Assembly (NCBI GenBank): GCA_937876465.1
Contig: CALEHV010000044.1
Coordinates: 9,841 to 73,840 of the forward strand
Direction: 5' to 3'
DNA from: an uncultured Bacillota bacterium
GTDB lineage: Bacteria; Bacillota_I; Bacilli_A; RFN20; CAG-826
Length of the DNA: 64,000 bases
In this document: piece after piece, positions 34,836-57,680 of the stretch
Numbering within the stretch: the first letter of the stretch is position 1
Layout of the letters: each line of letters opens with the position of its first letter
The notes under the pieces: model-generated
What the model saw: the letters and a program-made list of their open reading frames with translations, nothing else
The model's database searches: none
Told to the model about the DNA's origin: nothing
Translations under genes and position numbers: made by a program

Positions 34836-34855
34836 AATGATAAATAAATTGTATT

Positions 34856-34877
34856 CGCATACATGCGCATTATGCGT
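34856..34877. promoter_or_regulatory. overlapping inverted repeats CGCAT-AC-ATGCG and GCGCAT-T-ATGCG(t): candidate operator, site 1
   Basis: Read directly from the sequence. The same GCGCATTATGCG core recurs at 36317-36329, and a related palindrome lies at 49168-49179, each upstream of a promoter of the fibre locus. Confidence 0.5.
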
Positions 34878-34904
34878 AATAAAGCTACTTTTATTTTTGT
34901 ATTC

Positions 34905-34933
34905 TGATAACAAATTTTCTTGCATGATATATA
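34905..34933 (+). promoter_or_regulatory. candidate promoter of the 35080 gene
   Basis: tgataa (34905-10), a 17-nt spacer, then an extended -10 tg-a-tatata (34925-33). This is a weak -35; other registers are possible. Confidence 0.3.
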
Positions 34934-35079
34934 AAATTAAATCTATAATAAAAATGCACATAGGAAATAACTAGCAATCGTCCCAAGTTGTTGTTTATTT
35001 CTGCATATCCCTATCATCCACTCAATAAAAATATTAAATGTTGAGTGATTTAGTCATTCAACGAAAGGAATTATTAAAA

Positions 35080-35763
35080 ATGAAAAAATCAAAAATCTTA
35101 GTTCCAGCAATCGCACTTCTCGCATTAGGCGTCGCTGGTTCAACAGTTGGTACAGTTGCTTGGTTCCAAGCTACAGCTGCTTCAACTAGTGTTGCTGCAG
35201 ATACAGCTAATGTTGAAACTATTTCTGGCGTTACAAACACTGACGCATTTGAAGTTACAGCAGTTCTTACTGGTTCACTCGACAATATTTATTTAACAAA
35301 TGATGCTGGCGAAACAAAATTAATCGTTAACAATGAGAATGTTGTTGTTACACCGTCAGAAGGTACTGGTTATAAAACATTAACAGTTAATGCAAAAGTT
35401 GACTATACAGGTTCAGGTTCACCTGTTTCTGCAGATTATGTCTTAAGCGCATGGAAAGAAACAGTTAAGGCTAGTGGCATTAATTTTACAGTTACTGATA
35501 CTTCAACTGGACTCGGAGCAGGTGCAGGCTTAAAATTCTGGACTGCAGCTCCAACATCATCATGGGCAGGTGAAGCTAGTGTTTCCGTAAACTGCACAAA
35601 ACCTGTCGCAACCGCTGTTACATTTACTGGAAGTGGTAATGCTTATTCAGCAGATATCGAATGTAATTTAGCTGTTTATGTTGGTGTCAAAGGCGTTGAT
35701 GATCTTGTGCAAGAATCAACTGATGCATATCAATTAACAGTTACACCAGCATTTGGTGCATAA
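35080..35763 (+). CDS. secreted 227-aa protein with SipW-cognate-type signal peptide; candidate major fibre subunit
   Basis: MKKSKILVPAIALLALGVAGSTVGTVAWFQATA.. (K-rich n-region, hydrophobic core, GTVAWF). The mature part is T/S/A/G/V-rich with only two Cys. It is monocistronic, with its own promoter region and a strong terminator. SD aaagga lies 10 nt upstream of the ATG at 35080; the track start at 35038 lies inside a hairpin loop and lacks an SD. Confidence 0.65.
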   Translation: MKKSKILVPAIALLALGVAGSTVGTVAWFQATAASTSVAADTANVETISGVTNTDAFEVTAVLTGSLDNIYLTNDAGETKLIVNNENVVVTPSEGTGYKTLTVNAKVDYTGSGSPVSADYVLSAWKETVKASGINFTVTDTSTGLGAGAGLKFWTAAPTSSWAGEASVSVNCTKPVATAVTFTGSGNAYSADIECNLAVYVGVKGVDDLVQESTDAYQLTVTPAFGA

Positions 35764-35785: not shown

Positions 35786-35812
35786 GGTCACATTAAAAAT
35801 GTGACCTTTTTT
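35786..35812 (+). terminator. rho-independent terminator after the 35080 gene
   Basis: Stem ggtcacat (35786-93) / atgtgacc (35799-806), loop taaaa, then tttttt. Confidence 0.9.
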
Positions 35813-36259: not shown

Positions 36260-36277
36260 CAAATATTTAAGTTTATA

Positions 36278-36310
36278 AAGGACGTTTCGAAAGAGGCGTC
36301 CTTTCTTTAT
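36278..36310 (+). terminator. rho-independent terminator
   Basis: Stem aaggacg (36278-84) / cgtcctt (36297-303), a 12-nt loop, then tctttat (a weak T-run). Confidence 0.6.
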
Positions 36311-36340: not shown

Positions 36341-36370
36341 TTGACAGAAAAATATCCTTTTTCATATAAT
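36341..36370 (+). promoter_or_regulatory. sigma-A promoter of the ten-gene operon
   Basis: Consensus TTGACA (36341-46), an 18-nt spacer and consensus TATAAT (36365-70). The predicted TSS is about 36377, immediately 5' of the riboswitch aptamer. Confidence 0.8.
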
Positions 36371-36380
36371 TAAATTAGTC

Positions 36381-36446
36381 AAATGGCAAAGCTACAGCAA
36401 TGTAGTGACGCAAAACTATAGGGTCTCTCTGAGATAGCCAGGTGCC
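36381..36446 (+). promoter_or_regulatory. c-di-GMP-I (GEMM-I) riboswitch aptamer, copy 1
   Basis: aaatGGCAAA, then hairpin gctaca-GCAA-tgtagt (GNRA tetraloop), the linker GACGCAAAAC, a second hairpin cta-taggg-tctc-tct-gaga-tag with a 5' internal loop, and gccaggtgcc. This is the two-hairpin GEMM-I layout with the conserved GCAAA/ACGCAAA elements. It lies in a 5' UTR 98 nt upstream of the ATG at 36544. Confidence 0.8.
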
Positions 36447-36543
36447 TAGATTTATGGAAGATCGTTTAACCGGATGATAGGTGATCGATTCCTTAGTAAA
36501 TCGTTGGGACAACATAATCTATTACTAATATTGGAAGTATTAT

Positions 36544-37359
36544 ATGGTTGATTTCAAGTTGCTTTACAAACGCAAGGCGAAAAAGATCGTTCCAATAGTT
36601 GGAGGTTGCTGCCTCGGTGTTATTGCAGTCTTTATTGGAGTAGCACTATTGGGCCAACGTTCAGCTCCACTTACAGTATCTTTAAATAACTCTGGTGCAT
36701 CACTTGCATTAAGTAGTTCACAAAAAGAAGGTTCACCTAAGACTTCATTCCTTTTAACTAAAGGTGTTCCTGGATATACAGAAATTGACGGAAGATCTAT
36801 TTCTTCATATGAACAAACTATGGAGATTGATAGTGAATTCTCAGAATCTGTTTTGTCACAGGATAAAAAGTCTACACTATTTTTTAAATACACTTTCTTT
36901 GTTCACAATACTGGAAGTAAGAACGCAACTTATACCTTGAGTTTAAATGTATCAAATCCTAATAGAACAGCAGATAATTTTGATCTTGCCGATATTTTAC
37001 GTGTACGTTTTTATGAGAATGCAGATGAAAATACACACACATATAAGACATACGCAAAAGCAACAACATATTTTGATCCAAATGCTGGAACATATGTTGA
37101 AGGTAAGGAACATATATCTGGTGCTGATACACCTCTTGTTGACGAAAACTTTGTAAGTAATAAAACAATTCTTACAAGTACAACTGAAAACTTTGAACCA
37201 AATGCTGTAAAACGTTATACATTCCTTTTCTGGCTTGAAGGAAACGATCCTGATAGCGATGGAAAAGAAGAACCTATTGGTAGTAGTTTAGCTTTAGGAG
37301 TAGGCGTAGACGCACATGAAGCAGACCAACCAAGCGAAGAAACATCTCAAGAAGAATAG
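36544..37359 (+). CDS. N-terminally membrane-anchored TasA/camelysin-like protein (tentative), acidic C-terminus
   Basis: One N-terminal TM (IVPIVGGCCLGVIAVFIGVALL) without the AWF motif. It has beta-rich stretches (STLFFKYTFFVHNTGSKNATYTLSLNVS) and the C-terminal motif FLFWLEGNDPDSDG..SSLALGVGV, which is related to the (Y/I)(L/I)EGWD motif of the next two proteins. Confidence 0.5.
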   Translation: MVDFKLLYKRKAKKIVPIVGGCCLGVIAVFIGVALLGQRSAPLTVSLNNSGASLALSSSQKEGSPKTSFLLTKGVPGYTEIDGRSISSYEQTMEIDSEFSESVLSQDKKSTLFFKYTFFVHNTGSKNATYTLSLNVSNPNRTADNFDLADILRVRFYENADENTHTYKTYAKATTYFDPNAGTYVEGKEHISGADTPLVDENFVSNKTILTSTTENFEPNAVKRYTFLFWLEGNDPDSDGKEEPIGSSLALGVGVDAHEADQPSEETSQEE

Positions 37360-38377
37360 TTTAATCGCTTGTCTTTCAACAACCATCTTAGCATTGTCTC
37401 TCACAGCTGGTACCTGTGGGACTTTTGCTTGGTTCACGTATGCGACACGTACCTATGTTGAATACGAGGGCGTAACGATTGGAATGGGTGGTTCAATCCA
37501 ATTAGGCTTTGATCCACATTTAGATCTTACAAACTATGCAAACTATGGTTTAGAAAGAGAAGAATATGAAGGTCGTTATCTTTATTGGTCAAATGGCGAT
37601 GCTGATGAAAATACATTGAATTATATTCTTTCGTCTATGGGCTATGCTACAGATAAAATGAGTCCTGTTTCCAGCGGTTCTTATTCATATGGAGACAGTG
37701 ATTTTTCTTTGCATCGCGCGCCTCGCTTATACGAAGCAATACAACCAGAAGCAGAGAAAAAAGAATACATTTTCTTGCCTATGGTATTTAGAGTAACCGG
37801 AGATTTAGAACCTGATACATATGTTCCAAATCAATCAATCTATCTTTTAACCGCAAATGTTAAGAGTGAAGAGAATATTCGCAAGAGTATCCGCATACAT
37901 ACTTCAAATGCAGACAGCACACACTTAATTAATCCAACTATAGAAACTGATGGATCAATTAAAGTAGGTGGAGCATTAGATTTGAATGGTGATGGATACT
38001 ACGATACTTACGACGAAAATATTAATGTTTATGAGTTTATGTACGGTGAATACGAGGGCGACAAAGTCCATAAAAACACACCGGAAGCTCAAGATTCTGA
38101 CGTTCCTGAAAGCGAACGCACAACATTCTTAGCGCGCCATAAAATGGGTACATATGCGGTAGATGATACATTAAGCACTCCTAAAACTGCAGATTACGAA
38201 GGCTTTAGAAAATTTGCTAAGAAACAAACCCCAATTGCAAAGACCAACGAAGAGACATCAAATTATGCATTCGTTGATTTAACTGCATTTATTGAGGGTT
38301 GGGACTTATCTGTTATTGAAGCCGAAAAGGGCAATCAGTTTAGCCTAGAATTAAAATTTGGAATAGCTGAATTATGA
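37316..38377 (+). CDS. secreted protein with SipW-cognate-type signal peptide, paralogue A (minor fibre component candidate)
   Basis: ..LALSLTAGTCGTFAWFTYA... It shares LDLNGDGYYDTYDEN and C-terminal FIEGWDLS..FSLELKFG with the next ORF. It overlaps the upstream ORF by 44 nt. Confidence 0.6.
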   Translation: MKQTNQAKKHLKKNSLIACLSTTILALSLTAGTCGTFAWFTYATRTYVEYEGVTIGMGGSIQLGFDPHLDLTNYANYGLEREEYEGRYLYWSNGDADENTLNYILSSMGYATDKMSPVSSGSYSYGDSDFSLHRAPRLYEAIQPEAEKKEYIFLPMVFRVTGDLEPDTYVPNQSIYLLTANVKSEENIRKSIRIHTSNADSTHLINPTIETDGSIKVGGALDLNGDGYYDTYDENINVYEFMYGEYEGDKVHKNTPEAQDSDVPESERTTFLARHKMGTYAVDDTLSTPKTADYEGFRKFAKKQTPIAKTNEETSNYAFVDLTAFIEGWDLSVIEAEKGNQFSLELKFGIAEL

Positions 38378-39411
38378 GAAAAAGAACTGTTATTGGAATT
38401 GGTACATGTTTAATTGCGATTGCGTTATCTGCAAGCGTACTTTCAACAGTCGCGTGGTATAACGGTTCATCACACTTACAAATCGAGAACTTTAACATTG
38501 GTTTTTCGTCTAAGGAACTTAAAATTTCTACAGATAACGTAGATTTCAAGGATCGCTTAGGTAAAAACGATTTAAACCAAGTTGATAAGTTCATACCTGT
38601 AAGCAGCATGTTTTCATCATTCTGGTTAAATTCTAAACAGGAACAACCTGTATTTAGAAAAGGCTTTGATGAAGAAGAAGTTAGAAAAACTACTTATACA
38701 TCTATTGATGATTACGCAGTTGCTGAAAGTGGATTCTTGTCACAGGTTCTATATTTGAAAAGTGATACAGATGCATCTGCAACTCTAGACATAGAAAAAA
38801 CCTATGTCCGCCCTAACGAAGATGCAAATAATGATATTGCTAATAAATTAGCAAGTAAATATCCTGAAATGTCTCATGAACAGATTGTTAATAATTTAAA
38901 CAAGATTTCTGATTCATTACGTATGTCAATTCTTGTACTTGATGAGGAACAAGAACATGAATTAGACGATTATGCTTATTACATTATCGATCCACATAAA
39001 AATGGAGACACCCTCTATGGTGGACTTTTAGATAATGATTTAGACGGATATTACGATAATTACGATGGAAAAGAAGTGCTCTTTGGTGAAGCGAATAATG
39101 TTAGTGAGTCTACACTTGTGTACACTGATGAAAAAGCTCACCACGAAGGCAAATCTTATTCTATATTTGAAGCATCAACAAAAGATAATGTAAAACATTT
39201 AGACTTAGGAAAATCTGTTGATGCTGGTTTGCAAATTGCAAAAGAAAATTCTCTCAGTTTAGTTGAGTCTCAAGACATTCGAATCTCCCTTAAGACTAAT
39301 GTATCTAAACGAATTGTCTTCTCCCTTTACTTAGAAGGTTGGGATTTAGACAATACAAATTTATCAATGTATGCGCATTTTTATATGAGCCTTGTGTTCA
39401 AACTTGCGTAA
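38374..39411 (+). CDS. secreted protein with SipW-cognate-type signal peptide, paralogue B
   Basis: ..IAIALSASVLSTVAWYNGS.., LDNDLDGYYDNYDGK and C-terminal YLEGWDLDN..FYMSLVFK; ATGA overlap with the upstream ORF. Confidence 0.6.
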   Translation: MRKRTVIGIGTCLIAIALSASVLSTVAWYNGSSHLQIENFNIGFSSKELKISTDNVDFKDRLGKNDLNQVDKFIPVSSMFSSFWLNSKQEQPVFRKGFDEEEVRKTTYTSIDDYAVAESGFLSQVLYLKSDTDASATLDIEKTYVRPNEDANNDIANKLASKYPEMSHEQIVNNLNKISDSLRMSILVLDEEQEHELDDYAYYIIDPHKNGDTLYGGLLDNDLDGYYDNYDGKEVLFGEANNVSESTLVYTDEKAHHEGKSYSIFEASTKDNVKHLDLGKSVDAGLQIAKENSLSLVESQDIRISLKTNVSKRIVFSLYLEGWDLDNTNLSMYAHFYMSLVFKLA

Positions 39412-39434: not shown

Positions 39435-40970
39435 ATGGAAGACTATTTCGCATATTTAGGAAAAATGATTGTCCAATTTTTCCAAGATGTTGGACAGTGG
39501 TTTTGTGATTGGGTAGCTTTTAAATATTCAAGACTACCTGGTAATTTCGCCCGTTATGGTGATTATTTTGGTTCATATAGCGGCGGATTTGGCGTTGGAG
39601 GATGGATTATGTTCGTCGTCTTCGCCATTGTATTTGTTGGACTTATAGGAGCGATTTGTTATGGATTGTTCTTGTTGATTCGCAAATATGTTCGTTTCGT
39701 TAAAGGTGAACTCGATAAAGACGCTTTAAAGCTTCAAGTTGAAAGACTTAATTACGAACTCTATCAAATCATGCAAGAAAGAGATCGTATCTTGGATTTA
39801 AAAGTCAAAGCTCTTGGTATTAATACCAAAAAGCCAGCTGGAGAAGAAGGCGAGAAATCTGAAGAAGAAGAAACAGTTGAAGAAATTGCTTCCCGTTTCC
39901 CAAAGCTTACTCATGTTGACCACGAGTATGCTGGTAAGAACATGGAGATTCCAGAAGTTGAAGGCTTAACATTGAGACAATTATGTGAAAATTTTAGAAA
40001 CTTTGCTGCCTCTCAACTTGGTTTGTACTACACAATTACAACTATCCGTCAATTATTTGCCGGTATGGGCGCAGGTAAATTAGTTATTCTCGAAGGTATT
40101 TCTGGTACTGGTAAAACTTCCATGCCATATGCCTTAGGTAAATTCTTTGCTCACGATGCAGAAATCTGTTCAGTTCAACCAAACTGGAAAGATAGATCAG
40201 AACTTCTTGGTTATTACAACGAATTTACTAAGAAATTCAACGAATCTGAATTCTTACGTGCTTTATATACATGTAACTACAGAAGAGACTTTAACCTTAT
40301 CGTTCTCGATGAAATGAACTTGGCTCGTGTTGAATACTACTTTGCTGAATTCCTTTCTGTTTTGGAAATGCCTAACCCAAATGAATGGAACGTTGAAATG
40401 ATTGGTAGCCACGATCCAAACGATCCTAAGTTATTTAAAAACGGTAAACTCAAAATTCCTCAAAACGTTGTCTTCTTCGGAACAGCTAACAACGATGACT
40501 CTACATTTACTATTTCCGATAAAGTTTACGACCGTGCTATTTGTTTGTTCTTTGATAACAAAGGTATTGCTTTTGAAGCACCATACCAAGCACCAATGGT
40601 TATTCCGTTCTCACAAGTCCAAAAACTTTATGATGAAGCAGACGCTAAGTACCAAGTTGATGAAAAGACACTTGCTAAGTTTGCAACTCTTGATGACTTT
40701 GTTATTAAGAAATTCAGACTCGCATTTGGTAACCGTATTTTAAAACAATTGAAAAAATTCGTTCCATGCTTTGTTGCTTGTGGTGGAACAGAATTAGATG
40801 GAATTGACTTCATCTTTACAAATAAAATTCTTAAGAAATTCGAATCTTTAAACATTGGCTTCCTTAAAAACGAACTTAAAGAACTTGACGCAATGCTCAA
40901 TAAATTATTCGGATCAGGAACATTCCCAATGGCTCACAAATTCATCGAAAACATGCTTAGAATGAACTAA
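39435..40970 (+). CDS. membrane-tethered McrB-family (AAA_5-type) AAA+ NTPase
   Basis: An N-terminal TM helix (GGWIMFVVFAIVFVGLIGAICYGLFLLI) and a coiled-coil (LKLQVERLNYELYQIMQERDRILDLK). Walker A is GISGTGKTS (40095-40118) and Walker B IVLDEMNLARVEYYFAEFLSVLE (from 40299). FFGTANNDDSTFTISDKVYDRA is the McrB-clade pattern DEMNLA..VEYYF..GT(A/V)N.D(D/E)(S/T). Strong SD aggagg. Confidence 0.7.
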   Translation: MEDYFAYLGKMIVQFFQDVGQWFCDWVAFKYSRLPGNFARYGDYFGSYSGGFGVGGWIMFVVFAIVFVGLIGAICYGLFLLIRKYVRFVKGELDKDALKLQVERLNYELYQIMQERDRILDLKVKALGINTKKPAGEEGEKSEEEETVEEIASRFPKLTHVDHEYAGKNMEIPEVEGLTLRQLCENFRNFAASQLGLYYTITTIRQLFAGMGAGKLVILEGISGTGKTSMPYALGKFFAHDAEICSVQPNWKDRSELLGYYNEFTKKFNESEFLRALYTCNYRRDFNLIVLDEMNLARVEYYFAEFLSVLEMPNPNEWNVEMIGSHDPNDPKLFKNGKLKIPQNVVFFGTANNDDSTFTISDKVYDRAICLFFDNKGIAFEAPYQAPMVIPFSQVQKLYDEADAKYQVDEKTLAKFATLDDFVIKKFRLAFGNRILKQLKKFVPCFVACGGTELDGIDFIFTNKILKKFESLNIGFLKNELKELDAMLNKLFGSGTFPMAHKFIENMLRMN

Positions 40971-42843: not shown

Positions 42844-42846
42844 TTG

Positions 42847-43680
42847 ATGGCAAAAAAGCAAAAGAAACCAAAAAGCAAACAACGAAAAATACTTGAGTGG
42901 GTTGCCACTGGTGTCTTTTTAGCTTTAATAGGCACAGTTGCTGGTTTTAGAATTTATCAAGCAGCATCTGGCGATCATGCTATTTTTGGAACTCAGTTTC
43001 CAGTCGTTTTAACAGATTCTATGGAAACCGACTATATGGTCGGCGATGTATTGAAGGTTAAAGCAGTTTCTCCTCAAGAAGTAAAAGAAGCTTTTGATAA
43101 AGGCGAAACTATTGATATTTCATTCAAATGGAATATTGGAACAGCTTCAAAACCAAATATTCAAATGATGACCCATAGAATCATCGATGTAATGTACTTT
43201 GTAAATACAGAAGACAACTACTCTTCTAATTACAAATACAATGCAAATACTTATTCATTTAATAACGATCAATACCATTACACCTTTGTTACTCACGGAA
43301 TCAACAAACATTCTAGCCAAACAAAAGAAGGCGAAGATTTAACAAATCAACTTCAATTTTCAAATGAATCACAATTCGTTGGAAGAGTTACTGGAAAGTC
43401 ACAATTCCTAAGAGTAGCAAACCAAATATTTACATCTGTTTGGACCCTTATCCTTTTAATACTAATTCCTGGATTATATATAGTGATCACCTCTGTTATC
43501 GATTTATTTAAAGCATTTGACGATGACGAGGATACAGAGAAACTTGTTTTAGAAGGCGGTGGAACTACACCCCCTCTAGAAGAGAAGAAGGAAGATCCTT
43601 TAAAAGGGTTAAGCGAAGAAGATAAAGAAAGACTTAAAAAAGAAATGCTTGAAGAACTTTTAAAGAGAGGAAAGAAATAA
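42847..43680 (+). CDS. sipW: archaeal/ER-type signal peptidase I (SipW-like) with C-terminal TM and charged tail
   Basis: An N-terminal TM, the catalytic Ser box VVLTDSMETDYMVGDVLKV (Ser codon 43018-20), the His box MMTHRIIDV, a later FVTHGINK..FVGRV region and a C-terminal TM (VWTLILLILIPGLYIVITSVI). It follows directly after the upstream stop (tag ttg ATG). Confidence 0.7.
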   Translation: MAKKQKKPKSKQRKILEWVATGVFLALIGTVAGFRIYQAASGDHAIFGTQFPVVLTDSMETDYMVGDVLKVKAVSPQEVKEAFDKGETIDISFKWNIGTASKPNIQMMTHRIIDVMYFVNTEDNYSSNYKYNANTYSFNNDQYHYTFVTHGINKHSSQTKEGEDLTNQLQFSNESQFVGRVTGKSQFLRVANQIFTSVWTLILLILIPGLYIVITSVIDLFKAFDDDEDTEKLVLEGGGTTPPLEEKKEDPLKGLSEEDKERLKKEMLEELLKRGKK

Positions 43681-49233: not shown

Positions 49234-49299
49234 AAATAGCAAAACTACAGCAATGTAGTGACGCAAAACTAAAGGGTCTCTAAGAGATAGCCAGCTGCC
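49234..49299 (+). promoter_or_regulatory. c-di-GMP-I (GEMM-I) riboswitch aptamer, copy 2
   Basis: It aligns without gaps to copy 1 with 6 substitutions in 66 nt (manual alignment), and has the same GCAA-capped hairpin, GACGCAAAAC linker and second hairpin. Confidence 0.8.
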
Positions 49300-49333
49300 T
49301 ATAAGAATTTGTCGGTGTCTGGCTTTTTAATTT
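49289..49333 (+). terminator. intrinsic terminator forming the expression platform of riboswitch copy 2
   Basis: agccag (49289-94, the 3' part of the aptamer) pairs with ctggct (49319-24). The stem is extended by tgcc/ggtg (C-G and G.U pairs) and followed by ttttaattt. Aptamer folding and terminator folding are therefore mutually exclusive. Confidence 0.65.
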
Positions 49334-52300: not shown

Positions 52301-53701
52301 TTAAATACTGTTGGCACACAAGCCATTACAGTTACACATACAGCATCTGGTAAGACAACTACATTCAATGTTACTGTCAAAGCTCCTGTAGTTTTAACTG
52401 GTATTGAATGTAGTGGATATACTGAAGAATATACTGTTGGAGATACATATCAATTTGATGCGACTGTAACAGCCAGCTATTCAGATGGTTCTTCACATAC
52501 AGTTACTCCAACCAGTGTTAATCCATCCACAATTGATACTTCGACAGATGGAGATCATACTATCACAGTCTCTTATACCGAAGGCAGTGTTACAAAAACT
52601 GATTCGTACACAGTTTCGGTTGTTGCAGGATCATCTACAACTTCTGTAACATTCGATTTCAAAAATAATAGTTACAGTTTAGCTACATCTCAAAGTGGAA
52701 GTAAAACTGCTGAAACTGGTGCTGCCAATATGACTATTAATAATTATGCATATAACACTTCAAACAAAGAAGTTCGATTGTATAAGTCAAATAGTAATTA
52801 TGGTGGAACCTCTAAAATGGTTTTCACAATTGATGAATCAAAGGTTATTAAATCAATTGTTATAACTGGAGCGGGTGCAGCCAACTTATCTCTTGGAGCT
52901 GGTGGCGGATCTTACAGCAATGGAACATGGACCGGTTCATCAACAAGTGTCACAATTCAAAACAACACTTCTTCAACGCAAGCCATTTATACAATTACAA
53001 TTACATACGAAAGTGGATCCACTCCTACCCCTGCAAGTATTTCTGTTAGCCCAACTACATTAAGCATGACTGTTGGCGGATCAGATCAAACTATTACTGC
53101 AACTACTTCAGGTGGCTCCGGAGGAAGTATTGAATGGTCTTCAACCAATACTTCTGTTGCAACAGTTGCAGGTGGAACCGTTCATGCTGTTGCTGCTGGT
53201 TCAGCGACAATTAAAGCCAATTATGAAGGCGCTGAAGCAACTTGCGAGGTTACAGTAACAGGAAGTTCTAGTGGAACAACAGTAAGTATTTCTTCATTTA
53301 GTTCTATATCAGGCAATATTGGTAGTGGTTCTATTGTTAGTTATTCGGCGTATAAAGGCGGAGGAACAAGTGGTCCAGCTGTAAATGATGGAGCAATTAG
53401 ACTATATCAAAATAGTAGTGGAAGTACCGGAGGATATGTTGTTATCGGAGTTTCGTCTGGACATAAAATTAAATCAGTAACCATTAAGTCTACAATGGGA
53501 ACAACAACTGGATATTATTTAGGAAATCCAGGAAGTACAACACCAAGTAAGAGTTCGTTTGAAGTAAGCAACTATAGTTTATCTGCAAATGCAGAATATA
53601 CTGTAAGCGACCTTGATACACAGTATATTACCTTTGCCTGTTTTGGTACATCAAGTAGCACACGATTGTACTTGTCATATATTTCTGTAACTTATTTATA
53701 A
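49355..53701 (+). CDS. giant (1448 aa) secreted multidomain adhesin-like protein with SipW-cognate-type signal peptide
   Basis: ..VVAATATYAWFKASNA... It carries six Ig-like repeats, one Big_2-type domain (ISVSPTTLSMTVGG..VHAVAAGSATIKA..CEVTV, about 53038-53262) and two copies each of two unassigned modules. No LPXTG or other wall-anchor motif is present. Confidence 0.75.
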   Translation: MNRLQKKIITIALALGNIVLSCVVAATATYAWFKASNATITTQSASTTIKSEAGGSTLQWEILKFDDNEKKGISYRENDEFFLQPYDQYLTAKNKHTNVILWADVMVSNFTSANQLYVDIECSPDHDPVYSSTATPEEKVPSYTSNICQFKSTVYSYTDADDNEVVVNDVLDNTNAATRYETTTNFFAGIKTPGTRFVALHNSTPNKDHSITLCPNFDIGASTAKKITIAVECSYNEKLVAHYANGRLGTINLAGDITSFNFRTGASYSGAYVKVTNQSQLDTSGRYMITYDGTEYAGDDMKAAFNGSGTSSEDFTGKLNYRDVFARKGRITETEVTHAQSWDYNIADSKLTSNSGYVVGATGSGMGASKSGSYTNTLTYNSGLVDTGSNSKYLNHNATAGGTKYNYYDSASGTKRKSPEFYRYDASAFGDMILSGIQLGGSINHQLEKGQPFSYGGTVTAVYNEGTASEFTENIPVNDPNLSFTGYDMNNDGNYLVTVSYTDVEDNITVTANYNLEVYTPEATLVSLSIAGQQTQFVEGDTFTLGDNAVITAHYSDGTNPVIQNNDSRLTINGPTQQQMDTEGTYEVNISFNDGTTTKSIEPYDIEVVAQTAAVYQRITSTSDLTNGTYLFVHENNSVALNGGLSTIDVVSNTISVSISNYQIEATAEVDAAAFTYNSTTKYFMNANNKYLSNSSDIDLVDTGVAHNVSFDSDNAIIKIGTESSSPRLRFNNNDGQKRFRYYTNDNMDAIQLYKKVNVSPLTSITLSNTTNTYYTGDTFVNPTITAHYKNGTQNNIDPSQCSIVDQATGSSPDLTTAGVKTIEVSYTENGVTKSDTYDITVTQTLPISLTNLSGYKTQFYTGDTFVIDSSGNSFSALVTYNSPATKTVHSSDVSHSTPDMSTAGQKTITISYTENGTTVSATYNITVTQKAISSIAVTTMPSKTTYTQGESLSTSGITVTATYNNGSQENVTSGCTYSPTTLNTVGTQAITVTHTASGKTTTFNVTVKAPVVLTGIECSGYTEEYTVGDTYQFDATVTASYSDGSSHTVTPTSVNPSTIDTSTDGDHTITVSYTEGSVTKTDSYTVSVVAGSSTTSVTFDFKNNSYSLATSQSGSKTAETGAANMTINNYAYNTSNKEVRLYKSNSNYGGTSKMVFTIDESKVIKSIVITGAGAANLSLGAGGGSYSNGTWTGSSTSVTIQNNTSSTQAIYTITITYESGSTPTPASISVSPTTLSMTVGGSDQTITATTSGGSGGSIEWSSTNTSVATVAGGTVHAVAAGSATIKANYEGAEATCEVTVTGSSSGTTVSISSFSSISGNIGSGSIVSYSAYKGGGTSGPAVNDGAIRLYQNSSGSTGGYVVIGVSSGHKIKSVTIKSTMGTTTGYYLGNPGSTTPSKSSFEVSNYSLSANAEYTVSDLDTQYITFACFGTSSSTRLYLSYISVTYL
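50650..51186 (+). repeat. two Ig-like (Big_3-like) protein repeats, ~85-90 aa each
   Basis: Pattern ..G(D/Q).F....V(T/I)A.Y..GT........(L/F)...G.D.....G.Y.V.(V/I)S(Y/F)......(T/S).......(V/I)(E/V)V. Confidence 0.6.
51626..52625 (+). repeat. four tandem Ig-like (Big_3-like) protein repeats, ~80-85 aa each
   Basis: A recurrent motif, e.g. YTGDTF...ITAHYKNGT...PDLTTAGVKTIEVSYTENGVTKSDTYDITVTQ, PDMSTAGQKTITISYTENGTTVSATYNITVTQ, LNTVGTQAITVTHTASGKTTTFNVTV and IDTSTDGDHTITVSYTEGSVTKTDSYTVSV. Confidence 0.7.
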
Positions 53702-53716: not shown

Positions 53717-56700
53717 ATGCTTAGATTATTAAAAAAGAACAAATTAATTATAGCACTATCATTATTCTTAATGAGTGGCGTAACAGCAGTAGTAGTTTCT
53801 ACTATTGCATGGTTTAAGGATGTCAGCATGTTTTCTCCATCAAATGCTTCTAGCTCTGTTATCACTAATTACTTTGACTCAGGAAAAGGAACACAAGCTG
53901 ATCCTCTCGTTATAACAAGACCAATACATTATTACAATCTCGTTTATCTACAAGAAACAAATCCTACTATTGAAGCAATTAGCGCTCAACCATTTGCTGA
54001 TTCAGTACTTTATTTCCAATTTGGTAAAAAAGATATTGACGGCAATGGTGGAACAGGCGATGAGAATATTTACAAATTCTATAACTATGGAGACGATGGA
54101 ACATTGCAATATAACGCTCAAGGCGATGAAACATATTCTCCAATTCTAAATATGAATTACTATAGTGGAACACGCGCTTTACCTCCATTAGGTTCAAGCA
54201 CACATCCATTTAAAGGACATATTGTTGGAAACAACTTAACTGTTTCAAAATTACACATTAATGGTGAAGGGTATTCAGATATTGGTATTTTTGGTTATGT
54301 AGCTCAAGGCGCTACTGTTTCAAATTTATATTTTGAAGCACCTTATATTGATGCCGGCAAAAATGATTGTACTAAGACCGGATCAAGTGGACACGATCCA
54401 CATCCAACCCACACATATATTGGGTATTTGGCTGGTCACGTTTACCAAGCTAACTCATCGTTCTCTAACGTTTACGTTAATAACTGTGAATTAGAAAATA
54501 CAACAGGCAATCAAAGTGAAATGATTAATACTTATGGTTATTTCGGCCACGTTGATTTGCCATCTGATATTCAAACAGAATCAGCAAGCTATTCTGCGGA
54601 AGCAAAAGCAAGCGATATCTATAACGCTGTAAACGGCTCTTATTCTGATGCAAGTAGTCAATCGGTTGTTTCAAGAAATACTTCTTACACTCCTAGCGGA
54701 ACATATGGTTCAGCGGTTACTAATTCCGGTGGCACTTATAATATGGGAAGTTATTCAGCCAACAATCCATATTCTTTATCAACCATCGGATATACTGGCG
54801 GCGAATCAGTTAACATGAATATCCGTTATAAGATTTCCGAAGGAAATCTAAACCCATTAGACATTAATACTACTCAATTAGATTCAAAACCAACCGAAGA
54901 AGAGTGGAAACAAAAAGATGATGGATCATATGTTTATTGGGATTCAGCAAATAGTAAATGGACTTATGCAAAAGTTGAATCGCATTCTTCTGGAGAAGAA
55001 GTAACGGTAGATTACAATTGCTTTACAATTTCATATACTTATAATTCAAAGAATTACTTCTTGAGATACGATAATGGTAATTTAGGATGCGCTCAAATCG
55101 ATTTGAATGCAAGCGGTGACCCAGTAACAACTTTAGGTGACGATTATTATTTCGTCTTTAAGAAAACCGAAGGCTCTAAAGGTATTGAAGAATTTACTTC
55201 AAATTCAAATAGTGCCTCCGTATACATTTACTCTCCTGCATATCAAAAGTATCTGTATATACAAGAAGTGTCTTCTAGTAATGAATATACTCCTCAATTT
55301 ATTGATACAGCAGAATTGAAGTTTAATATTTCCGGACAACCAACAACAGAAATTTCAACAGTTTTAGGTTCCTACACCGATGCTCTCCATGGTGAAAGCC
55401 ATGTTTGGAGTAATAGAAAAACATCTACAAATCCAGGCACAACATTTACAATTGGAAAACCTGGCACTAGATCAAGTGTTGTTGGTTCAGAATATAATCT
55501 TATTACTAGTTCAACTGGTGTTCACGCTGGTGATGTTGTTGTTATTGCAACAGGATTTGATGTTGGTAAGAGCCATTCGTATAGTGGCTATTATGTAATG
55601 ACTGGTCAAAACACAAATAACCGTTCAGCCGAATTAACTACTGTAGTTAATAATAAATTAACACCGATACCAGGAGCTGCCGAATTCCTTATTGGAGACG
55701 GTTCCAGTGTTGTAGAAGATTCCTATACTTTCTTTGATCAATCTTCTACTTATAAAGAAGATAATAGTGGTTATCTTTATGCTTCTAGTAGTAACAGCAA
55801 CTATATGAACACCAACAAATTAAGTACTGCTGGAGATAACGCCTATGCAACCATTAATATTGACGCAAACGGATATGCTGAAATACGTTTCCAAGGTCCA
55901 AGTACGCGTGACTATATGTATTTTAACTCAAACACTCAGGGCACATATCCAAATTATTCTCAATTTAGTCCTTTATTCTCATGTTATGGATATAAATCTG
56001 TGGGTAGTAGTTTAACTGCTATTGGATATGATGATTCGCATAACCAATTCCATTATCCTAAATTATTTAAAAAGACAGAAATTCACGGTAGTGATGAAGA
56101 TTATTCAACTTGTGTTGTTAGAAGATACACTTCATACGCCCCTATTGAACAGACCGTAACACCATACGATATGTTTACCGCCCCATTATCTGCAGATGCT
56201 GATAATCCAGCAAGTTATTCGTCTACCCCATTTAACGTTAATCCTGATAAAGATGTCACGTTTATATTCGCTTCTTCAAGAGTTTCTTTTACTGGTTCTA
56301 GCGAAACATATTGGGCAAAAGTTACTAACCAATCAGAGATTACTTCAGGCGATAAATATTTAATTGTTAGTGAAGACGATGGAGTTGCGTTTGATGGCTC
56401 TTTAACAGCGCTTGATGCGGGTAAAAACAAGATTTCGGTTACAATTTCAGATTCTAAGATTACTGAAAATGCCACCGCTTTAATTGCAAGTTCGTTTACA
56501 ATTTCAACAGTAACTGGAGGATATTCAATCCAATCTTCCAGCGGATATTATATTGGCTCCTCATCTACTGGTAATCAACTTAAAACAAGTACATCATATA
56601 GTGCTAGTACCTATCTGAATACAATTTCTATTGACACAAATTCTAATGCAACAATTAAGGCAGGTGGAACAGAAAATCAAACATTGGCTTATAACTCTGT

Positions 56701-57637
56701 ATCAGGGGATACAAACGAACGTTTTAGATATTATAAAACAGCAGGAGGTACCAGCAATAACCATTACCCTCAATTATTTAAATTGATTGAAGCTCAAGGT
56801 AGCACAGAAACATATATTGGTGACTTAGTCGGCAATAGATATAATCCAAATCGTATTGATGTTGTAGGTCCAGTTTCTTTCAGTTCGAATTCTTATAGCT
56901 TTACAGGAACCAGTTCAGTTACAAGTTCACCAAGTGGAAAATATTACACTACGTCATTTATTAAGAGTGGTATTTCTATCCTTGTAGATAAAAACGGATC
57001 AAGAGATCTTGGACATTTAATTGTTGATTATAGCGGTTCTTCAGAACCATACTTATTTAGCACTTCAGGAAGTTCTACAACATTATCTACTGCAGGTGCT
57101 AGAGATACAGACGGAAATGCAGGCGATAACGTCCACAGTTACTTATTGAACTTTAACAATACAAATATTTTGACGCTTGCATATTGCGGAATTGATTCAA
57201 GTGGCAATATTGTATCGTTAAATAGTGGTTCATTAGAAAAATATGTATTAGTCGTTGGTGCTGCAACTAGTGTTGCATTTAGTAACGTACAATATAACTT
57301 CCTTAAACCTCAGGGCAATGTCGGAAACTTTGGAAGTGTCGATTATAGAACAGCTCAATATGATAGCAACGGAGTTATAACTCAAGCATCGCTAAATGAG
57401 CAAGTTGCTAACTCTAATATCTCGATTTTCTATGATATAACAAATGAGAACCATGTATTCTCGATGACTGTTTTATACGACTCATCTACTCAAACATATA
57501 ATTTAACAGTAGAAACCAATATGGATATTGTTATAACCGTCTTCCTCTACGATAACACTTCAAAGGTTATTGTTAACGGAGATACATCACATACATATAT
57601 GGCATCCTCAAATGTAATTCCTATCATAGTGAATTAG
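53717..57637 (+). CDS. giant (1306 aa) secreted adhesin-like protein with SipW-cognate-type signal peptide and GLUG-like beta-helix region
   Basis: ..GVTAVVVSTIAWFKDVS... There is a GLUG-like stretch (HPFKGHIVGNNLTVSKLHING..IGIFGYVAQGATVSNLYFE..YIGYLAGHV..FSNVYVNNCEL, about 54190-54500) and two copies of the module shared with the preceding protein. No LPXTG. SD aaaggag lies 15 nt after the upstream stop. Confidence 0.7.
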   Translation: MLRLLKKNKLIIALSLFLMSGVTAVVVSTIAWFKDVSMFSPSNASSSVITNYFDSGKGTQADPLVITRPIHYYNLVYLQETNPTIEAISAQPFADSVLYFQFGKKDIDGNGGTGDENIYKFYNYGDDGTLQYNAQGDETYSPILNMNYYSGTRALPPLGSSTHPFKGHIVGNNLTVSKLHINGEGYSDIGIFGYVAQGATVSNLYFEAPYIDAGKNDCTKTGSSGHDPHPTHTYIGYLAGHVYQANSSFSNVYVNNCELENTTGNQSEMINTYGYFGHVDLPSDIQTESASYSAEAKASDIYNAVNGSYSDASSQSVVSRNTSYTPSGTYGSAVTNSGGTYNMGSYSANNPYSLSTIGYTGGESVNMNIRYKISEGNLNPLDINTTQLDSKPTEEEWKQKDDGSYVYWDSANSKWTYAKVESHSSGEEVTVDYNCFTISYTYNSKNYFLRYDNGNLGCAQIDLNASGDPVTTLGDDYYFVFKKTEGSKGIEEFTSNSNSASVYIYSPAYQKYLYIQEVSSSNEYTPQFIDTAELKFNISGQPTTEISTVLGSYTDALHGESHVWSNRKTSTNPGTTFTIGKPGTRSSVVGSEYNLITSSTGVHAGDVVVIATGFDVGKSHSYSGYYVMTGQNTNNRSAELTTVVNNKLTPIPGAAEFLIGDGSSVVEDSYTFFDQSSTYKEDNSGYLYASSSNSNYMNTNKLSTAGDNAYATINIDANGYAEIRFQGPSTRDYMYFNSNTQGTYPNYSQFSPLFSCYGYKSVGSSLTAIGYDDSHNQFHYPKLFKKTEIHGSDEDYSTCVVRRYTSYAPIEQTVTPYDMFTAPLSADADNPASYSSTPFNVNPDKDVTFIFASSRVSFTGSSETYWAKVTNQSEITSGDKYLIVSEDDGVAFDGSLTALDAGKNKISVTISDSKITENATALIASSFTISTVTGGYSIQSSSGYYIGSSSTGNQLKTSTSYSASTYLNTISIDTNSNATIKAGGTENQTLAYNSVSGDTNERFRYYKTAGGTSNNHYPQLFKLIEAQGSTETYIGDLVGNRYNPNRIDVVGPVSFSSNSYSFTGTSSVTSSPSGKYYTTSFIKSGISILVDKNGSRDLGHLIVDYSGSSEPYLFSTSGSSTTLSTAGARDTDGNAGDNVHSYLLNFNNTNILTLAYCGIDSSGNIVSLNSGSLEKYVLVVGAATSVAFSNVQYNFLKPQGNVGNFGSVDYRTAQYDSNGVITQASLNEQVANSNISIFYDITNENHVFSMTVLYDSSTQTYNLTVETNMDIVITVFLYDNTSKVIVNGDTSHTYMASSNVIPIIVN

Positions 57638-57641
57638 ATAC

Positions 57642-57672
57642 AAAAAATACGCACATAGTTGCGTATTTTTTT
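57642..57672. terminator. bidirectional terminator between the adhesin operon and convergent xdhC-like gene
   Basis: Stem atacgc (57647-52) / gcgtat (57661-66) with an A-run 5' and tttttt 3'. Confidence 0.8.
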
Positions 57673-57680
57673 AAACTCGT

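Follow-up and report, generated by a model that had tools for sequence, protein, structure and literature searches.

The window analyzed here, 64,000 nt of the forward strand from an uncultured Bacillota bacterium (RFN20; CAG-826; assembly GCA_937876465.1, contig CALEHV010000044.1, positions 9,841 to 73,840), holds a locus (Table 1) that is conserved as a gene cassette among uncultured gut Bacilli with small genomes. The cassette combines a SipW-type signal peptidase and TasA/AbpA-like secreted proteins with a c-di-GMP riboswitch and a membrane-tethered McrBC-derived GTPase pair. The open reading frames and gene junctions of the original prediction agree with our ORF analysis, except that it counted ten genes at 36544-49026, where the ORFs give nine, and omitted the conserved gene g02, with its two transmembrane (TM) helices. 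Its consensus promoter is present (12/12 positions). Of the bidirectional terminators said to bound three transcription units, those following g01 and g11 were located, but a sequence scan of the window found none downstream of 57637. The hairpin 3' of g02 was read directly from the sequence, its loop of more than 8 nt having kept it off the output of the terminator scan. Both g02 and g01, the candidate major subunit, lie outside the riboswitch-controlled unit.

Table 1. Genes and regulatory features of the cassette (window coordinates; ↓ marks the predicted cleavage site)
Feature	Description	Coordinates	Strand	Basis
g01	Secreted ~24-kDa protein, SipW-type signal …GTVA↓WF; candidate major subunit	35080..35763	+	ORF, monocistronic
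Terminator	Bidirectional intrinsic terminator, 3' of g01	35786..35806	.	Terminator scan
g02	Small membrane protein, two hydrophobic helices	35849..36259	+	ORF
Hairpin	Terminator-like hairpin and T-run, 3' of g02	36277..36309	+	Direct sequence reading
Promoter	Consensus sigma-70, TTGACA-18-TATAAT	36341..36370	+	12/12 match
Riboswitch 1	c-di-GMP-I (GEMM-I) aptamer heading the nine-gene operon	36375..36449	+	Rfam RF01051, 53.6 bits
g03	N-terminally membrane-anchored jelly-roll protein, AbpA/TasA-like fold; candidate fiber base or nucleator	36544..37359	+	AF2 model and Foldseek
g04	Secreted β-rich subunit, signal GTFA↓WF, D-x-N-x-D-G-x-x-D loop, C-terminal EGWD motif	37316..38377	+	ORF, AF2 model
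g05	g04 paralog, signal STVA↓WY	38374..39411	+	hhalign 99.9%, E 4.9e-34
g06	Membrane-tethered McrB-like AAA+ GTPase: N-terminal segment, one TM helix, coiled coil, AAA+ domain	39435..40970	+	AAA_5 match, profile search
g07	McrC-like partner: DUF2357 N-domain, coiled coil, variable charged disordered tail	40975..42843	+	Pfam PF09823
g08	SipW/archaeal-type signal peptidase I, C-terminal TM helix, cytoplasmic tail with LSxxDKExLKKEMLEE	42844..43680	+	Profile search
g09	Membrane EAL phosphodiesterase, catalytic motifs intact	43680..45218	+	Pfam EAL, E 1.1e-65
g10	Divergent PNP_UDP_1 (MTAN-like) superfamily protein	45215..45955	+	PNP_UDP_1, E 4e-10
g11	1021-aa membrane protein, degenerate EAL domain; candidate c-di-GMP receptor	45961..49026	+	ORF, domain search
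Terminator	Bidirectional, closing the nine-gene operon	49040..49065	.	Terminator scan
Riboswitch 2	Second c-di-GMP-I aptamer (49228-49302) with overlapping terminator	49228..49324	+	Rfam, 57.2 bits
g12	1448-aa secreted protein, signal ATYA↓WF, Big_3/Big_2 domains; putative cargo or adhesin	49355..53701	+	ORF, domain and motif search
g13	1306-aa secreted protein, signal STIA↓WF; putative cargo or adhesin	53717..57637	+	ORF, motif search

Conservation was scored on one genome per species, counting colinear homologs in those loci with room for them. The order of the genes is preserved in 60 of 64 species loci, and colinear homologs were recovered for g03 (39/39), g04 (48/48), g05 (66/66), g07 (66/66), g08 (55/55), g09 (54/54), and g10 (42/42), as well as for g02 in 29 of 34 loci; most loci also have a g01-like gene with GTVAW[FY] upstream.

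Both of the GEMM-I aptamers previously proposed score above the Rfam gathering score of 35 for c-di-GMP-I. In riboswitch 2, the 3' strand of the aptamer doubles as the 5' arm of a terminator (dG -14.2) that ends near 49324 and is followed by a T-run; the scan places the start of this terminator 25 nt within the aptamer, and the GCCAG... arm starts about 13 nt within it, so that the riboswitch has ON-switch architecture. The same arrangement (AGCCAGUUGCC...GGCAACUGGCU, then Us; terminator dG -15 to -30) occurs in most, indeed nearly all, of the 30 orthologous leaders sampled, and an aptamer precedes the g03 ortholog, the first gene of the operon, in 54/54 loci. Gating by c-di-GMP, as claimed, thus appears to be a fixed feature of the cassette, with the response to the ligand expected from membership in the riboswitch family. 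In this genome, gating of the nine-gene operon is uncertain because riboswitch 1 has lost to decay the canonical expression-platform terminator that orthologous leaders have.

The motif [GSA]T.AW[FY] follows a hydrophobic stretch in exactly five ORFs on the two strands of the 64-kb window, all of them within the locus (starts at 35080, 37316, 38374, 49355, and 53717), in agreement with the five signal-bearing proteins of the original prediction. The T-x-A↓x-[FY] site of these N termini resembles that of TasA, and its P2' position is aromatic, the feature that makes TasA a substrate of SipW and not of LepB (PMC10269814). The same signal motif is seen again in all related loci, and the signal anchors are better conserved than the mature domains. 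The start of g01 was set by the conserved N terminus of its orthologs (MKKSKILVPA…GTVAWF). No LPxTG motif was found in g12.

To what extent these proteins resemble TasA differs among them. The AF2 model of g03 (pLDDT 81.9) is a jelly-roll whose top Foldseek match is AbpA (7ueg_A; E 5.6e-4, prob 0.95) and which also matches the TasA fiber (8aur_A; prob 0.89), although the TM-scores are low (0.23-0.33) despite the high probabilities. These best PDB matches, a bundling pilus and a fiber, both belong to the TasA superfamily, and the proposal of a TasA-like anchor at this position is upheld by the model. The high-confidence model of g04 (pLDDT 87.8) had no significant match, and no TasA hit, in the Foldseek comparison with the PDB. 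Nor did any subunit have a Pfam, NCBIfam, or PDB sequence match to TasA/Peptidase_M73; within the g01 family, TIGR04088 hits a single member of 18 (E 0.022). The larger subunits are remotely homologous but match no PDB entry significantly. Because g04 lacks a structural match and sequence models find none, any TasA-likeness of the major and minor subunits would be only transitive, through a chain of remote homology from g03 to g01 (85%), from the g01 family to g04 (hhalign 97%, E 6.9e-11), and from g04 to g05 (99.9%).

The assignment of g08 as an archaeal/ER (SipW)-type peptidase agrees with its best matches, NF046067 (E 1.6e-10) and TIGR02228 (E 5.5e-5), both below curated cutoffs, and with the conservation in 69 orthologs of a DSME motif (Ser) and a THR motif (His). 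Its C-terminal peptide recurs in g02 (DLSxxxKExLRxELL) but in no other family of the cassette.

The description of g06 as a TM-anchored McrB-family protein is borne out by a profile search in which McrB structures (6hz4, E 1.5e-4; 6ut6; 7vsr) are the sole PDB matches; its motifs are GISGTGKTS (Walker A), VLDEMN (Walker B), and ANNDDST (sensor, NxD+D), the last of which is kept as N-x-D-[DE]-S-T in its relatives. Its partner g07 matches DUF2357 (PF09823) at E 2.2e-7 and 30.8 bits, above the gathering score of 23.3, only after removal of the low-complexity tail, and the match recurs in 21 of 41 orthologs. No nuclease domain was detected in g07, consistent with the nuclease-less McrC-like partner proposed. 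The lysine-rich tail described for it is peculiar to this genome, with the net charge of the tail ranging from -157 to +39 among 70 orthologs.

Such a pair could be a defense module co-transcribed in the operon, a CoCoNuT-like, type IV restriction-related system targeting nucleic acids. The sensor places g06 in the NxD branch set out by Bell et al. 2024 (PMC11090510), which includes CoCoNuTs; g06 matches the PADLOC candidate defense protein PDC-M26A (E 4.5e-39), and no SipW gene lies near its closest relatives with long coiled coils (L085-L101). However, no nuclease, HEPN, or DNA-reader domain was found in g06, g07, or the rest of the cassette, and g06 is anchored in the membrane. Both genes of the pair occur in colinear order in 66/66 orthologous species loci with room, in a housekeeping region of the chromosome (SecA, UvrB, and DnaX lie nearby), unlike patchy defense islands, and g06, a relative of which is encoded in 544 species genomes, is the most conserved and slowest-evolving gene of the cassette (64% mean identity versus 32-44% for the others). 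We regard a defense role as very improbable. The predicted coupling of the pair to the fiber locus, by contrast, is what this synteny indicates: the pair belongs to the system and is not an unrelated insertion.

Among AAA_5 relatives, MoxR, CbbQ, and GvpN, for example, are cytoplasmic maturation chaperones, and the ring and its DUF2357 partner could likewise act outside export and assembly, remodeling or holding a cytoplasmic factor (pre-Sec precursors or a c-di-GMP signaling component) or controlling expression. The cytoplasmic location of g07, with its long coiled coil and disordered tails of variable charge, is compatible with such a role, as are the three c-di-GMP-related proteins of the cassette. 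The TM anchor of g06 is nevertheless invariant throughout the clade, and distant relatives have multi-TM or extracellular N-terminal domains, which indicates action at the membrane. Moreover, SipW directly adjoins the AAA+ gene in other lineages, and SipW-AAA-McrC_N neighborhoods with other gene orders occur in distant metagenomic lineages. A chaperone or regulator of this kind seems to us quite unlikely.

The remaining proteins of the operon largely match their earlier description, with an intact EAL phosphodiesterase (g09, conserved catalytic motifs) and a divergent MTAN-fold protein (g10). Of the doubly degenerate GGDEF-EAL protein, the degenerate EAL domain of g11 stands, with ELL, DNF, and TGVA replacing EAL, DDF, and EGVE, but Pfam detected no GGDEF domain in the g11 of the window, although it did so in an ortholog. 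This domain state makes g11, which is fixed in the cassette, a candidate c-di-GMP receptor.

On balance, we lean toward a c-di-GMP-induced, SipW-processed surface fiber/adhesin system in which the GTPase ring controls processing or assembly. Binding of c-di-GMP to the leader aptamers would block the overlapping terminators and so switch on the nine-gene operon and, as an independent unit, the cargo genes. The g01, g04, g05, g12, and g13 products would then be exported by Sec and held in the membrane by signal anchors ending in T-x-A↓W-[FY], where g08 would cut and release new N termini. The freed N-terminal strands may polymerize by donor-strand exchange onto membrane-anchored g03, the giant g12 and g13 proteins joining the fiber through the same strand. 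The g06 ring would be suspended beneath the membrane, with the TM helix and coiled coil as its tether and g07 as its activator, and could be coupled to g08 and g02 through their common cytoplasmic C-terminal helices, such that GTP hydrolysis would gate or drive a processing or assembly step; this coupling is the weakest step of the proposal. Negative feedback would come from g09, which would lower c-di-GMP, and g11 may sense c-di-GMP post-translationally.

The locus could also serve without a fiber, if the β-rich proteins were monomeric or laterally packed on wall-less cells and if the SipW-like peptidase were governed from inside by the GTPase pair together with the degenerate EAL protein, so that its substrates would either remain anchored (uncleaved) or be released, much as LapD/LapG control LapA. 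Such control would fit the greater conservation of the signal anchors, the conserved cytoplasmic tail that g08 has in common with g02, the fixation of g11, the lack of a fiber-like structural neighbor for g04, and hosts that, predicted to be wall-less and sortase-less, need other means of retaining surface proteins. We nonetheless consider it unlikely: the structures that g03 matches best are those of two donor-strand-exchange fibers, pilus loci typically have, as here, more than one paralogous subunit and a further subunit gene that is transcribed on its own and looks abundant, and the region after the cleavage site in the g04 monomer model (residues 45-56) is of low confidence (pLDDT <50), as expected of a donor strand.

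As a fiber system, the cassette would differ from the TasA, AbpA, thread, and cannula fibers characterized to date, all of which, to our knowledge, assemble without an NTPase, whereas this locus encodes a GTPase pair. The original prediction of an undescribed system is only partly correct; the association of McrBC with a signal peptidase had already been named CoCoPALM and presented as pilus-assembly-linked, in two sentences with description deferred (Bell et al. eLife 2024; PMC11090510), but it was never characterized there. The locus most likely belongs to these CoCoPALM-type, McrBC-linked, signal-peptidase-associated systems, of which it would be a chromosomal example from gut Bacilli with small genomes, switched by c-di-GMP and producing a surface fiber or adhesin. 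Pfam did not detect the FtsB homology that has been claimed for CoCoPALM. The host order is without sortases, and some host families (RFN20 CAG-288) are predicted to be without peptidoglycan. A membrane-anchored, sortase-independent fiber would suit such hosts.

The locus lies in the chromosomal core and not on an island, since the genes that flank it are housekeeping genes (among them those for SecA, UvrB, DnaX, and fructose-bisphosphate aldolase). TGA serves as a stop codon in the window, so the standard genetic code applies and genetic code 4 is ruled out. Elsewhere in the window, a single ORF of 888 aa (1918-4584) fuses an Orn/Lys/Arg decarboxylase domain (OKR_DC_1) to an agmatine-deiminase-type domain (PAD_porph), possibly forming an enzyme of an arginine-to-carbamoylputrescine pathway.

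The original prediction was right about the anatomy in nearly every point: its aptamers, promoter, and ORFs were found, as were bidirectional terminators at two places (see the table), and both GEMM-I aptamers score above the Rfam gathering score. The packed operon, however, counts nine genes (g03 to g11) and not the ten assigned to 36544-49026, and although the ORFs are as described, a conserved gene for a small membrane protein, g02, had been overlooked together with its terminator-like hairpin. The prediction of five proteins with a SipW-type N-terminal motif also holds: when all ORFs of 80 aa or longer on either strand were searched for [GSA]T.AW[FY] behind a hydrophobic stretch, exactly five matched, all of them in the locus. 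The start of the secreted subunit g01 is backed by the N-terminus MKKSKILVPA, which is kept in orthologs. Because g01 and g02 are transcribed separately (35080-36310), upstream of the promoter and riboswitch, it is apparently the machinery and the cargo that are under c-di-GMP riboswitch control, with g02 and the candidate major subunit g01 outside it.

Features of the locus, in window coordinates, and conservation of its genes (loci with a colinear homolog/loci with room for the gene)
Feature	Position	Description	Conservation
g01	35080-35763	Secreted subunit	
Bidirectional terminator	35786-35806		
g02	35849-36259	Small membrane protein (2 TM helices), conserved; own terminator-like hairpin	29/34
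Promoter TTGACA-18-TATAAT	36341-36370	12/12 consensus match	
c-di-GMP-I aptamer 1	36375-36449	Rfam RF01051, 53.6 bits (gathering score 35)	
g03		Candidate anchor	39/39
g04		Secreted subunit	48/48
g05		Secreted subunit	66/66
g06		McrB-like AAA+ protein	
g07		DUF2357 partner	66/66
g08		SipW-like peptidase	55/55
g09		EAL protein	54/54
g10	45215-45955	PNP_UDP_1 protein	42/42
g11		Degenerate EAL protein	
Bidirectional terminator	49040-49065		
c-di-GMP-I aptamer 2	49228-49302	Rfam RF01051, 57.2 bits (gathering score 35)	
g12	49355-53701	Giant secreted protein	
g13	53717-57637	Giant secreted protein	

Relatives of the AAA+ protein g06 number at least 8,000 among metagenome proteins at an E value of ≤0.001 (61 to 91% identity among the 120 matches listed), and one is encoded in 544 of some 185,000 genomes that each represent a species. 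Synteny was counted as colinear same-strand homologs in the 80 best species loci, each gene being scored only where a locus has room for it. The genes keep a colinear order in 60 of the 64 loci, and g06 is the slowest-evolving gene of the cassette, with a mean identity of 64% versus 32 to 44% for the others. This synteny rules out the AAA+ pair as an unrelated insertion: far from being absent from orthologous loci, the pair decisively belongs to them, as had been predicted, g07 being present wherever there is room for it.

The identification of g06 (39435-40970) as a TM-anchored member of the McrB family was borne out. Its Pfam match, to AAA_5, is weak, and the only PDB protein found by its family profile is McrB (6hz4, with an E value of 1.5e-4, plus 6ut6 and 7vsr). 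The protein is laid out as one TM helix, a conserved juxtamembrane helix (largely invariant as ELDKDxLxxQVERLNYEL), and then the AAA+ motifs, namely Walker A (GISGTGKTS), Walker B (VLDEMN), and an invariant sensor (GTANNDDST); the TM helix at about residues 57 to 82 and the heptad-rich helix that follows at about residues 88 to 128 are both visible in the sequence and conserved. Full-length g07 has no match in Pfam; with its low-complexity C-terminal tail removed, it scores above the gathering score for DUF2357 (PF09823), as do 21 of 41 orthologs; past the domain comes a charged helical segment, with a coiled coil judged from the sequence. Thus, the description of g07 as a nuclease-less, DUF2357/McrC-like protein stands, but the lysine-rich tail ascribed to it is not general: across orthologs, the net charge of the tail has a median of -4.5 and ranges from -157 to +39. 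Since this charge is not conserved, a histone-like DNA-binding tail, as in a DNA-uptake scheme, is ruled out, and the idea of DNA binding by g07 was dropped. In three loci (L079, L019, and L032), the g07 orthologs reach 2,240 to 2,331 aa; in the proteins of L019 and L079, a long N-terminal extension puts the start of the DUF2357 region at about residue 400 or later, and the long C-terminal extension in L079 includes nonrepetitive sequence past the coiled coil.

Like Escherichia coli McrB/McrC (6HZ4), the pair joins an AAA+ GTPase bearing the family sensor motif to a DUF2357 partner encoded immediately downstream, but it differs in that the GTPase is membrane tethered and that Pfam and PADLOC find neither a nuclease (PD-(D/E)xK in McrBC) nor a DNA-reader domain in g06 or g07. 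Given that g06 matches the PADLOC candidate defense protein PDC-M26A (E value of 4.5e-39), automated defense finders may mislabel this pair. A defense module that is merely cotranscribed with the other genes is nevertheless highly improbable, in view of the membrane anchor, the total lack of a nuclease, and a synteny that is fixed in the core chromosome, and the embedding of the pair in a secretion or fiber operon makes a nondefense role likely.

The locus was originally put forward as a candidate undescribed system. Bell, Makarova, Wolf, and Koonin (eLife 2024, PMC11090510) have described the NxD branch of McrB and, under the name CoCoPALM, systems whose GTPase carries an FtsB-like TM helix and a coiled coil as a fusion; to these they devote two sentences, deferring the analysis to a forthcoming paper, and a search of later papers and of supplementary files found no use of the term. 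From the features stated in that paper, we infer that the locus belongs to the CoCoPALM clade. In both, an McrB-like GTPase of the NxD type has a TM helix and coiled coil at its N-terminus, a DUF2357 McrC homolog has a coiled coil and no nuclease, and the operon includes a signal-peptidase-family gene. The g06 sensor N-N-D-D-S-T (N-x-D-[DE] in relatives, such as ANRDES, ANDDDS, and ANTDDS) fits their "NxD followed by D/E," although HMMER aligns the NNDD of g06 to NTAD without a gap, so that an NxxD reading is formally possible. The exception among the listed features is the FtsB homology of the g06 N-terminus, which was not reproduced with Pfam, the DivIC/FtsB models giving no match even at E values of up to 1. 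The system is therefore already named but uncharacterized, and several of its parts go beyond the paper: riboswitch control; the genes for the EAL, degenerate-EAL, and PNP proteins; the signal motif of the substrates; the AbpA/TasA-like anchor; and the host clade.

An exhaustive search with the g06 profile recovered 925 clusters (at 50% identity) at an E value of ≤1e-30 and 7,001 at ≤1e-10, and the N-terminal halves of these relatives are of four types: one TM helix with a short coiled coil, as in the window; a signal peptide, ectodomain, and TM helix; multi-TM domains; and very long coiled coils lacking a TM helix. Three relatives (P0209, P0236, and P0311) have a signal peptide with an extracellular domain of about 280 aa or multi-TM N-terminal domains. 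Judging from the ectodomain and multi-TM relatives, the family may transmit something across the membrane; the rival proposal that the GTPase is a cytoplasmic chaperone or regulator strikes us as improbable.

Distant metagenomic loci, collected with the long-coiled-coil type as the query, fall into four groups: the AAA+ and DUF2357 genes alone, with no SipW; about 20 loci ordered SipW-AAA-DUF2357, with other cargo; loci ordered EAL-EAL-g03-(g04/g05-like, two to five copies)-SipW-AAA-DUF2357-SipW2; and the AAA+ and DUF2357 genes with flanks lacking SipW. That the link between GTPase and peptidase recurs in different gene orders argues for function and not for the inheritance of one arrangement. 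One metagenomic locus (L134:2499-17927, contig Ga0116189_1000072), whose order of EAL-EAL-g03-subunits-SipW-AAA-DUF2357-SipW is unlike that of the window, encodes five tandem proteins of about 300 aa with GTTTFAWFTL, up to three SipW-like proteins (HMM E values of 1e-25, 3e-13, and 1e-4), and further small proteins with AWF or AWL motifs.

In the window, the peptidase gene g08 (42844-43680) lies two genes downstream of g06. The best matches of its product are the SipW/archaeal signal peptidase I models NF046067 (E value of 1.6e-10) and TIGR02228 (5.5e-5), both below the equivalog cutoffs, and the motifs VLTDSME (Ser) and mTHR (His) show conservation of 90% or more across 69 orthologs, in agreement with its earlier assignment to the archaeal/ER (SipW) type; a search of PDB with g08 alone found nothing. 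The model of the SipW-cognate signal, TIGR04088, matched a single protein among 18 from the g01 family (E value of 0.022) and none of the window proteins. The predicted cleavage site of the substrates, T-x-A↓W-[FY], has an aromatic residue at P2' and resembles that of TasA, which we take to be T-W-A↓A-F. According to one study (PMC10269814), it is an aromatic P2' residue that makes TasA a substrate of SipW and not of the general peptidase. A mechanism of the type IV pilin kind is ruled out, there being no prepilin-type cleavage motif and the active site of the SipW-type peptidase lying outside the membrane.

Past their last TM helices, g08 and the small membrane protein g02 end in a common cytoplasmic peptide, (D/N)L(S/T)xExKExL(K/R)xELLx(D/E)(L/M), in essentially all loci. 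The strict pattern occurs in 25 of 43 g02 and 24 of 68 g08 proteins and in none of eight other cassette families, which suggests a shared docking partner, and the juxtamembrane helix of g06 is similar in character to this peptide. We envisage a membrane complex in which g08 and g02 would dock, by way of their C-terminal helices, either on the GTPase ring or on its partner.

Whether the secreted subunits are TasA-like, as predicted, has a divided answer. Full-length g01, g03, g04, and g05 match nothing in Pfam or NCBIfam, including TasA/Peptidase_M73 (PF12389) and camelysin; the Peptidase_M73/TasA models match none of 18 g01-family members; and profile searches of PDB sequences found no TasA with g03 or g05 and nothing relevant with g03, g05, or g07. 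The model of g04 (pLDDT of 87.8 and pTM of 0.78) is β-rich, with a low-confidence segment after the cleavage site, and has no significant Foldseek neighbor in PDB (best E value of 0.064); TasA is absent from the list, whose insignificant matches include jelly rolls and the Sulfolobus thread subunit 7pnb. On the other side of the prediction, the model of g03 (pLDDT of 81.9) has as its top PDB match the Pyrobaculum bundling pilin AbpA (7ueg_A; E value of 5.6e-4, probability of 0.95), and the TasA fiber 8aur_A (E value of 7.7e-3) ranks second by probability (0.89) and leads the list in TM-scores. AbpA, whose homology to TasA is established, polymerizes by donor-strand exchange, and its AlphaFold monomer self-complements (PMC9245690); the first strand of the g03 model likewise appears self-complementing. 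This strand and the low-confidence segment of g04 are the sole hints at donor-strand exchange in the cassette. The model thus supports a TasA-superfamily fold for the membrane-anchored g03.

The remaining subunits are connected to g03 by profile-profile comparisons: g04 and g05 are paralogs (99.9%, E value of 4.9e-34), the g01 family is homologous to g04 along its full length (97%, 6.9e-11), g03 is distant kin of the g01 family (85%, 5.9e-6), and a C-terminal strand motif, hh(W/Y)hEG(W/E/N)D, is common to g03 and the g01, g04, and g05 families. Membership of these subunits in the TasA superfamily is plausible only through such transitive remote homology, and they are candidates for fiber formation. 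A conserved loop, LDLNGDGYYD(T/N)YD, at about residues 221 to 232 of g04 and 219 to 230 of g05 (window positions 37316-39411) fits the EF-hand-like calcium-binding pattern D-x-N-x-D-G-x-x-D.

Of the two giant secreted proteins, g12 contains Big_3 and Big_2 domains, and both g12 and g13 lack an LPxTG motif as well as a C-terminal anchor. The hosts of g06 relatives are gut and rumen "Bacilli bacterium," "Erysipelotrichaceae," Candidatus Onthovivens, Candidatus Enterosoma, which belongs to order RFN20, family CAG-288 (PMC8035907), and Clostridium sp. CAG:288, which is itself among the cassette loci; the nearest relatives of the window locus come from horse-feces and rumen "Bacilli" MAGs. Some of the host families are predicted to lack peptidoglycan and sortases, and in such hosts a membrane-anchored, sortase-independent display would make sense.

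The EAL proteins and g10 were for the most part correctly foreseen. From its domain match and conserved catalytic motifs, g09 is an intact EAL enzyme; g10 belongs to the PNP_UDP_1 superfamily, in line with the divergent MTAN-fold protein proposed for it; this gene is fixed between g09 and g11 in all 42 loci with room for it. The supposed doubly degenerate GGDEF-EAL protein, g11, is degenerate in its EAL domain (E value of 4e-28), with ELL, DNF, and TGVA in place of EAL, DDF, and EGVE, but Pfam detects no GGDEF domain in the window protein, although it finds one in an ortholog. There is an analogy here to LapD/LapG/LapA, in which a degenerate c-di-GMP-binding membrane receptor is likewise encoded with a surface-protein protease and giant adhesins. 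The locus might also be read as a nonfiber surface coat or adhesin system whose peptidase is under LapD/LapG-like inside-out control; we regard this as unlikely, and the likeness is one of analogy only, and protease class and receptor architecture both differ.

A covariance model built from 12 aptamers and searched against the ≤400 nt upstream of g03 orthologs finds an aptamer in all 54 loci with enough upstream sequence, and RF01051 gives ten further matches (51.7 to 65.9 bits) in seven loci. Most of 30 sampled leaders form a strong hairpin (dG of -15 to -30 kcal/mol) ahead of a U-run, and the 5' arm of this hairpin is the aptamer's own 3' strand, AGCCAGUUGCC, so the ligand-stabilized aptamer fold should block termination. 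By this architecture, in which the terminator overlaps the aptamer 3' strand, riboswitch control of the cassette is predicted to be universal and of the ON type, and the aptamers are candidates for a c-di-GMP response. In about nine loci, a second aptamer directly follows g11, and where the sequence continues, the genes that come next are again for T-x-A-W-[FY] proteins. Riboswitch 2 of the window, before the cargo, retains the overlap. In the leader of riboswitch 1 (36450-36543), the aptamer is intact, and the complementary terminator arm, which in most of the sampled orthologous leaders is GGCAACUGGCU followed by Us, is mutated to GGTGATCGATTCC; the window leader after aptamer 1 folds no better than shuffled sequence. 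With this arm lost, gating of the operon is less certain in this genome than in its relatives.

In Clostridia, c-di-GMP-I ON riboswitches control pili and adhesins, e.g., Clostridioides difficile pilA1. Such riboswitches resemble those of the locus in that the 3' strand of a GEMM-I aptamer competes with a terminator upstream of surface-appendage genes, but here the switch controls a SipW/McrBC-type cassette instead of type IV pili or sortase substrates, and a second copy controls the cargo.

Close counterparts of the locus are the sipW matrix fiber operons (tapA-sipW-tasA of Bacillus subtilis, sipW-tasA-calY of B. cereus, and sipW-bsaA of Clostridium perfringens), with which the locus shares a dedicated ER/archaeal-type signal peptidase, T-x-A↓x-[FY] substrate sites with an aromatic P2' residue, a jelly roll modeled with a TasA-superfamily fold (g03), and several accessory secreted paralogs. 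It differs from them in its subunits, which are not TasA/Peptidase_M73 by sequence, are larger, and have no PDB neighbor; in having an McrB-like GTPase and its DUF2357 partner as obligatory components, along with two EAL proteins and a PNP-like protein; and in its use of a c-di-GMP riboswitch where those operons use SinR/BsaRS, some of its hosts moreover being predicted to be wall-less. The archaeal bundling pili AbpA/AbpB (7UEG; PMC9245690) provide the best structural match of g03, being TasA-superfamily donor-strand-exchange fibers whose AlphaFold monomer folds the donor strand back as the g03 model does, but they are archaeal, rely on a general signal peptidase, and have no conserved NTPase or c-di-GMP control.

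Proceeding from the observed parts, their synteny, the riboswitch architecture, and the modeled fold of g03, we find best supported, at somewhat better than even odds, a c-di-GMP-induced surface system with SipW-type processing, strand-exchange assembly, and gating by a GTPase. Sec-exported subunits and giant cargo would be held by their conserved signal anchors and cleaved by g08 at T-x-A↓W-[FY]; they would then polymerize on g03, the AbpA/TasA-like anchor, through strand exchange, with the g06/g07 GTPase module gating or powering a step of processing or assembly, g09 providing feedback, and g11 acting as a posttranslational sensor of c-di-GMP. The original interpretation is partly supported, and we take the locus for a SipW/TasA-type fiber operon with an obligatory McrBC-derived GTPase, within the named but undescribed CoCoPALM group.

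A stronger version, which we advance only tentatively and consider rather doubtful, makes the GTPase an obligatory membrane-embedded, McrBC-derived motor in an uncharacterized, c-di-GMP-riboswitch-switched pathway that processes or assembles TasA/AbpA-superfamily donor-strand-exchange fibers and giant adhesins on partly wall-less gut Bacilli. To our knowledge, TasA-type, archaeal bundling, thread, and cannula fibers are thought to self-assemble extracellularly without an energy source, and we know the McrBC family only from restriction and defense; if true, an otherwise chaperone-free fiber class would gain its first NTP-driven member, and the McrBC family its first nondefense function. The fixation of a GTPase ring beside a dedicated peptidase in hundreds of species suggests an unstudied energy- or signal-gated step, and the coupling of GTPase to fiber would surprise specialists in either biofilm fibers or McrBC. 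The analysis turns the CoCoPALM label into a concrete parts list (riboswitch, T-x-A↓W-[FY] substrates, AbpA/TasA-like anchor, shared docking peptide, EAL feedback enzyme, and degenerate EAL receptor) that makes this coupling directly testable. The cassette would give the McrBC family a function at the cell surface, and in its hosts, which are abundant uncultured Bacilli of the gut and rumen, it may be the main means of adhesin display and a c-di-GMP-controlled colonization factor.
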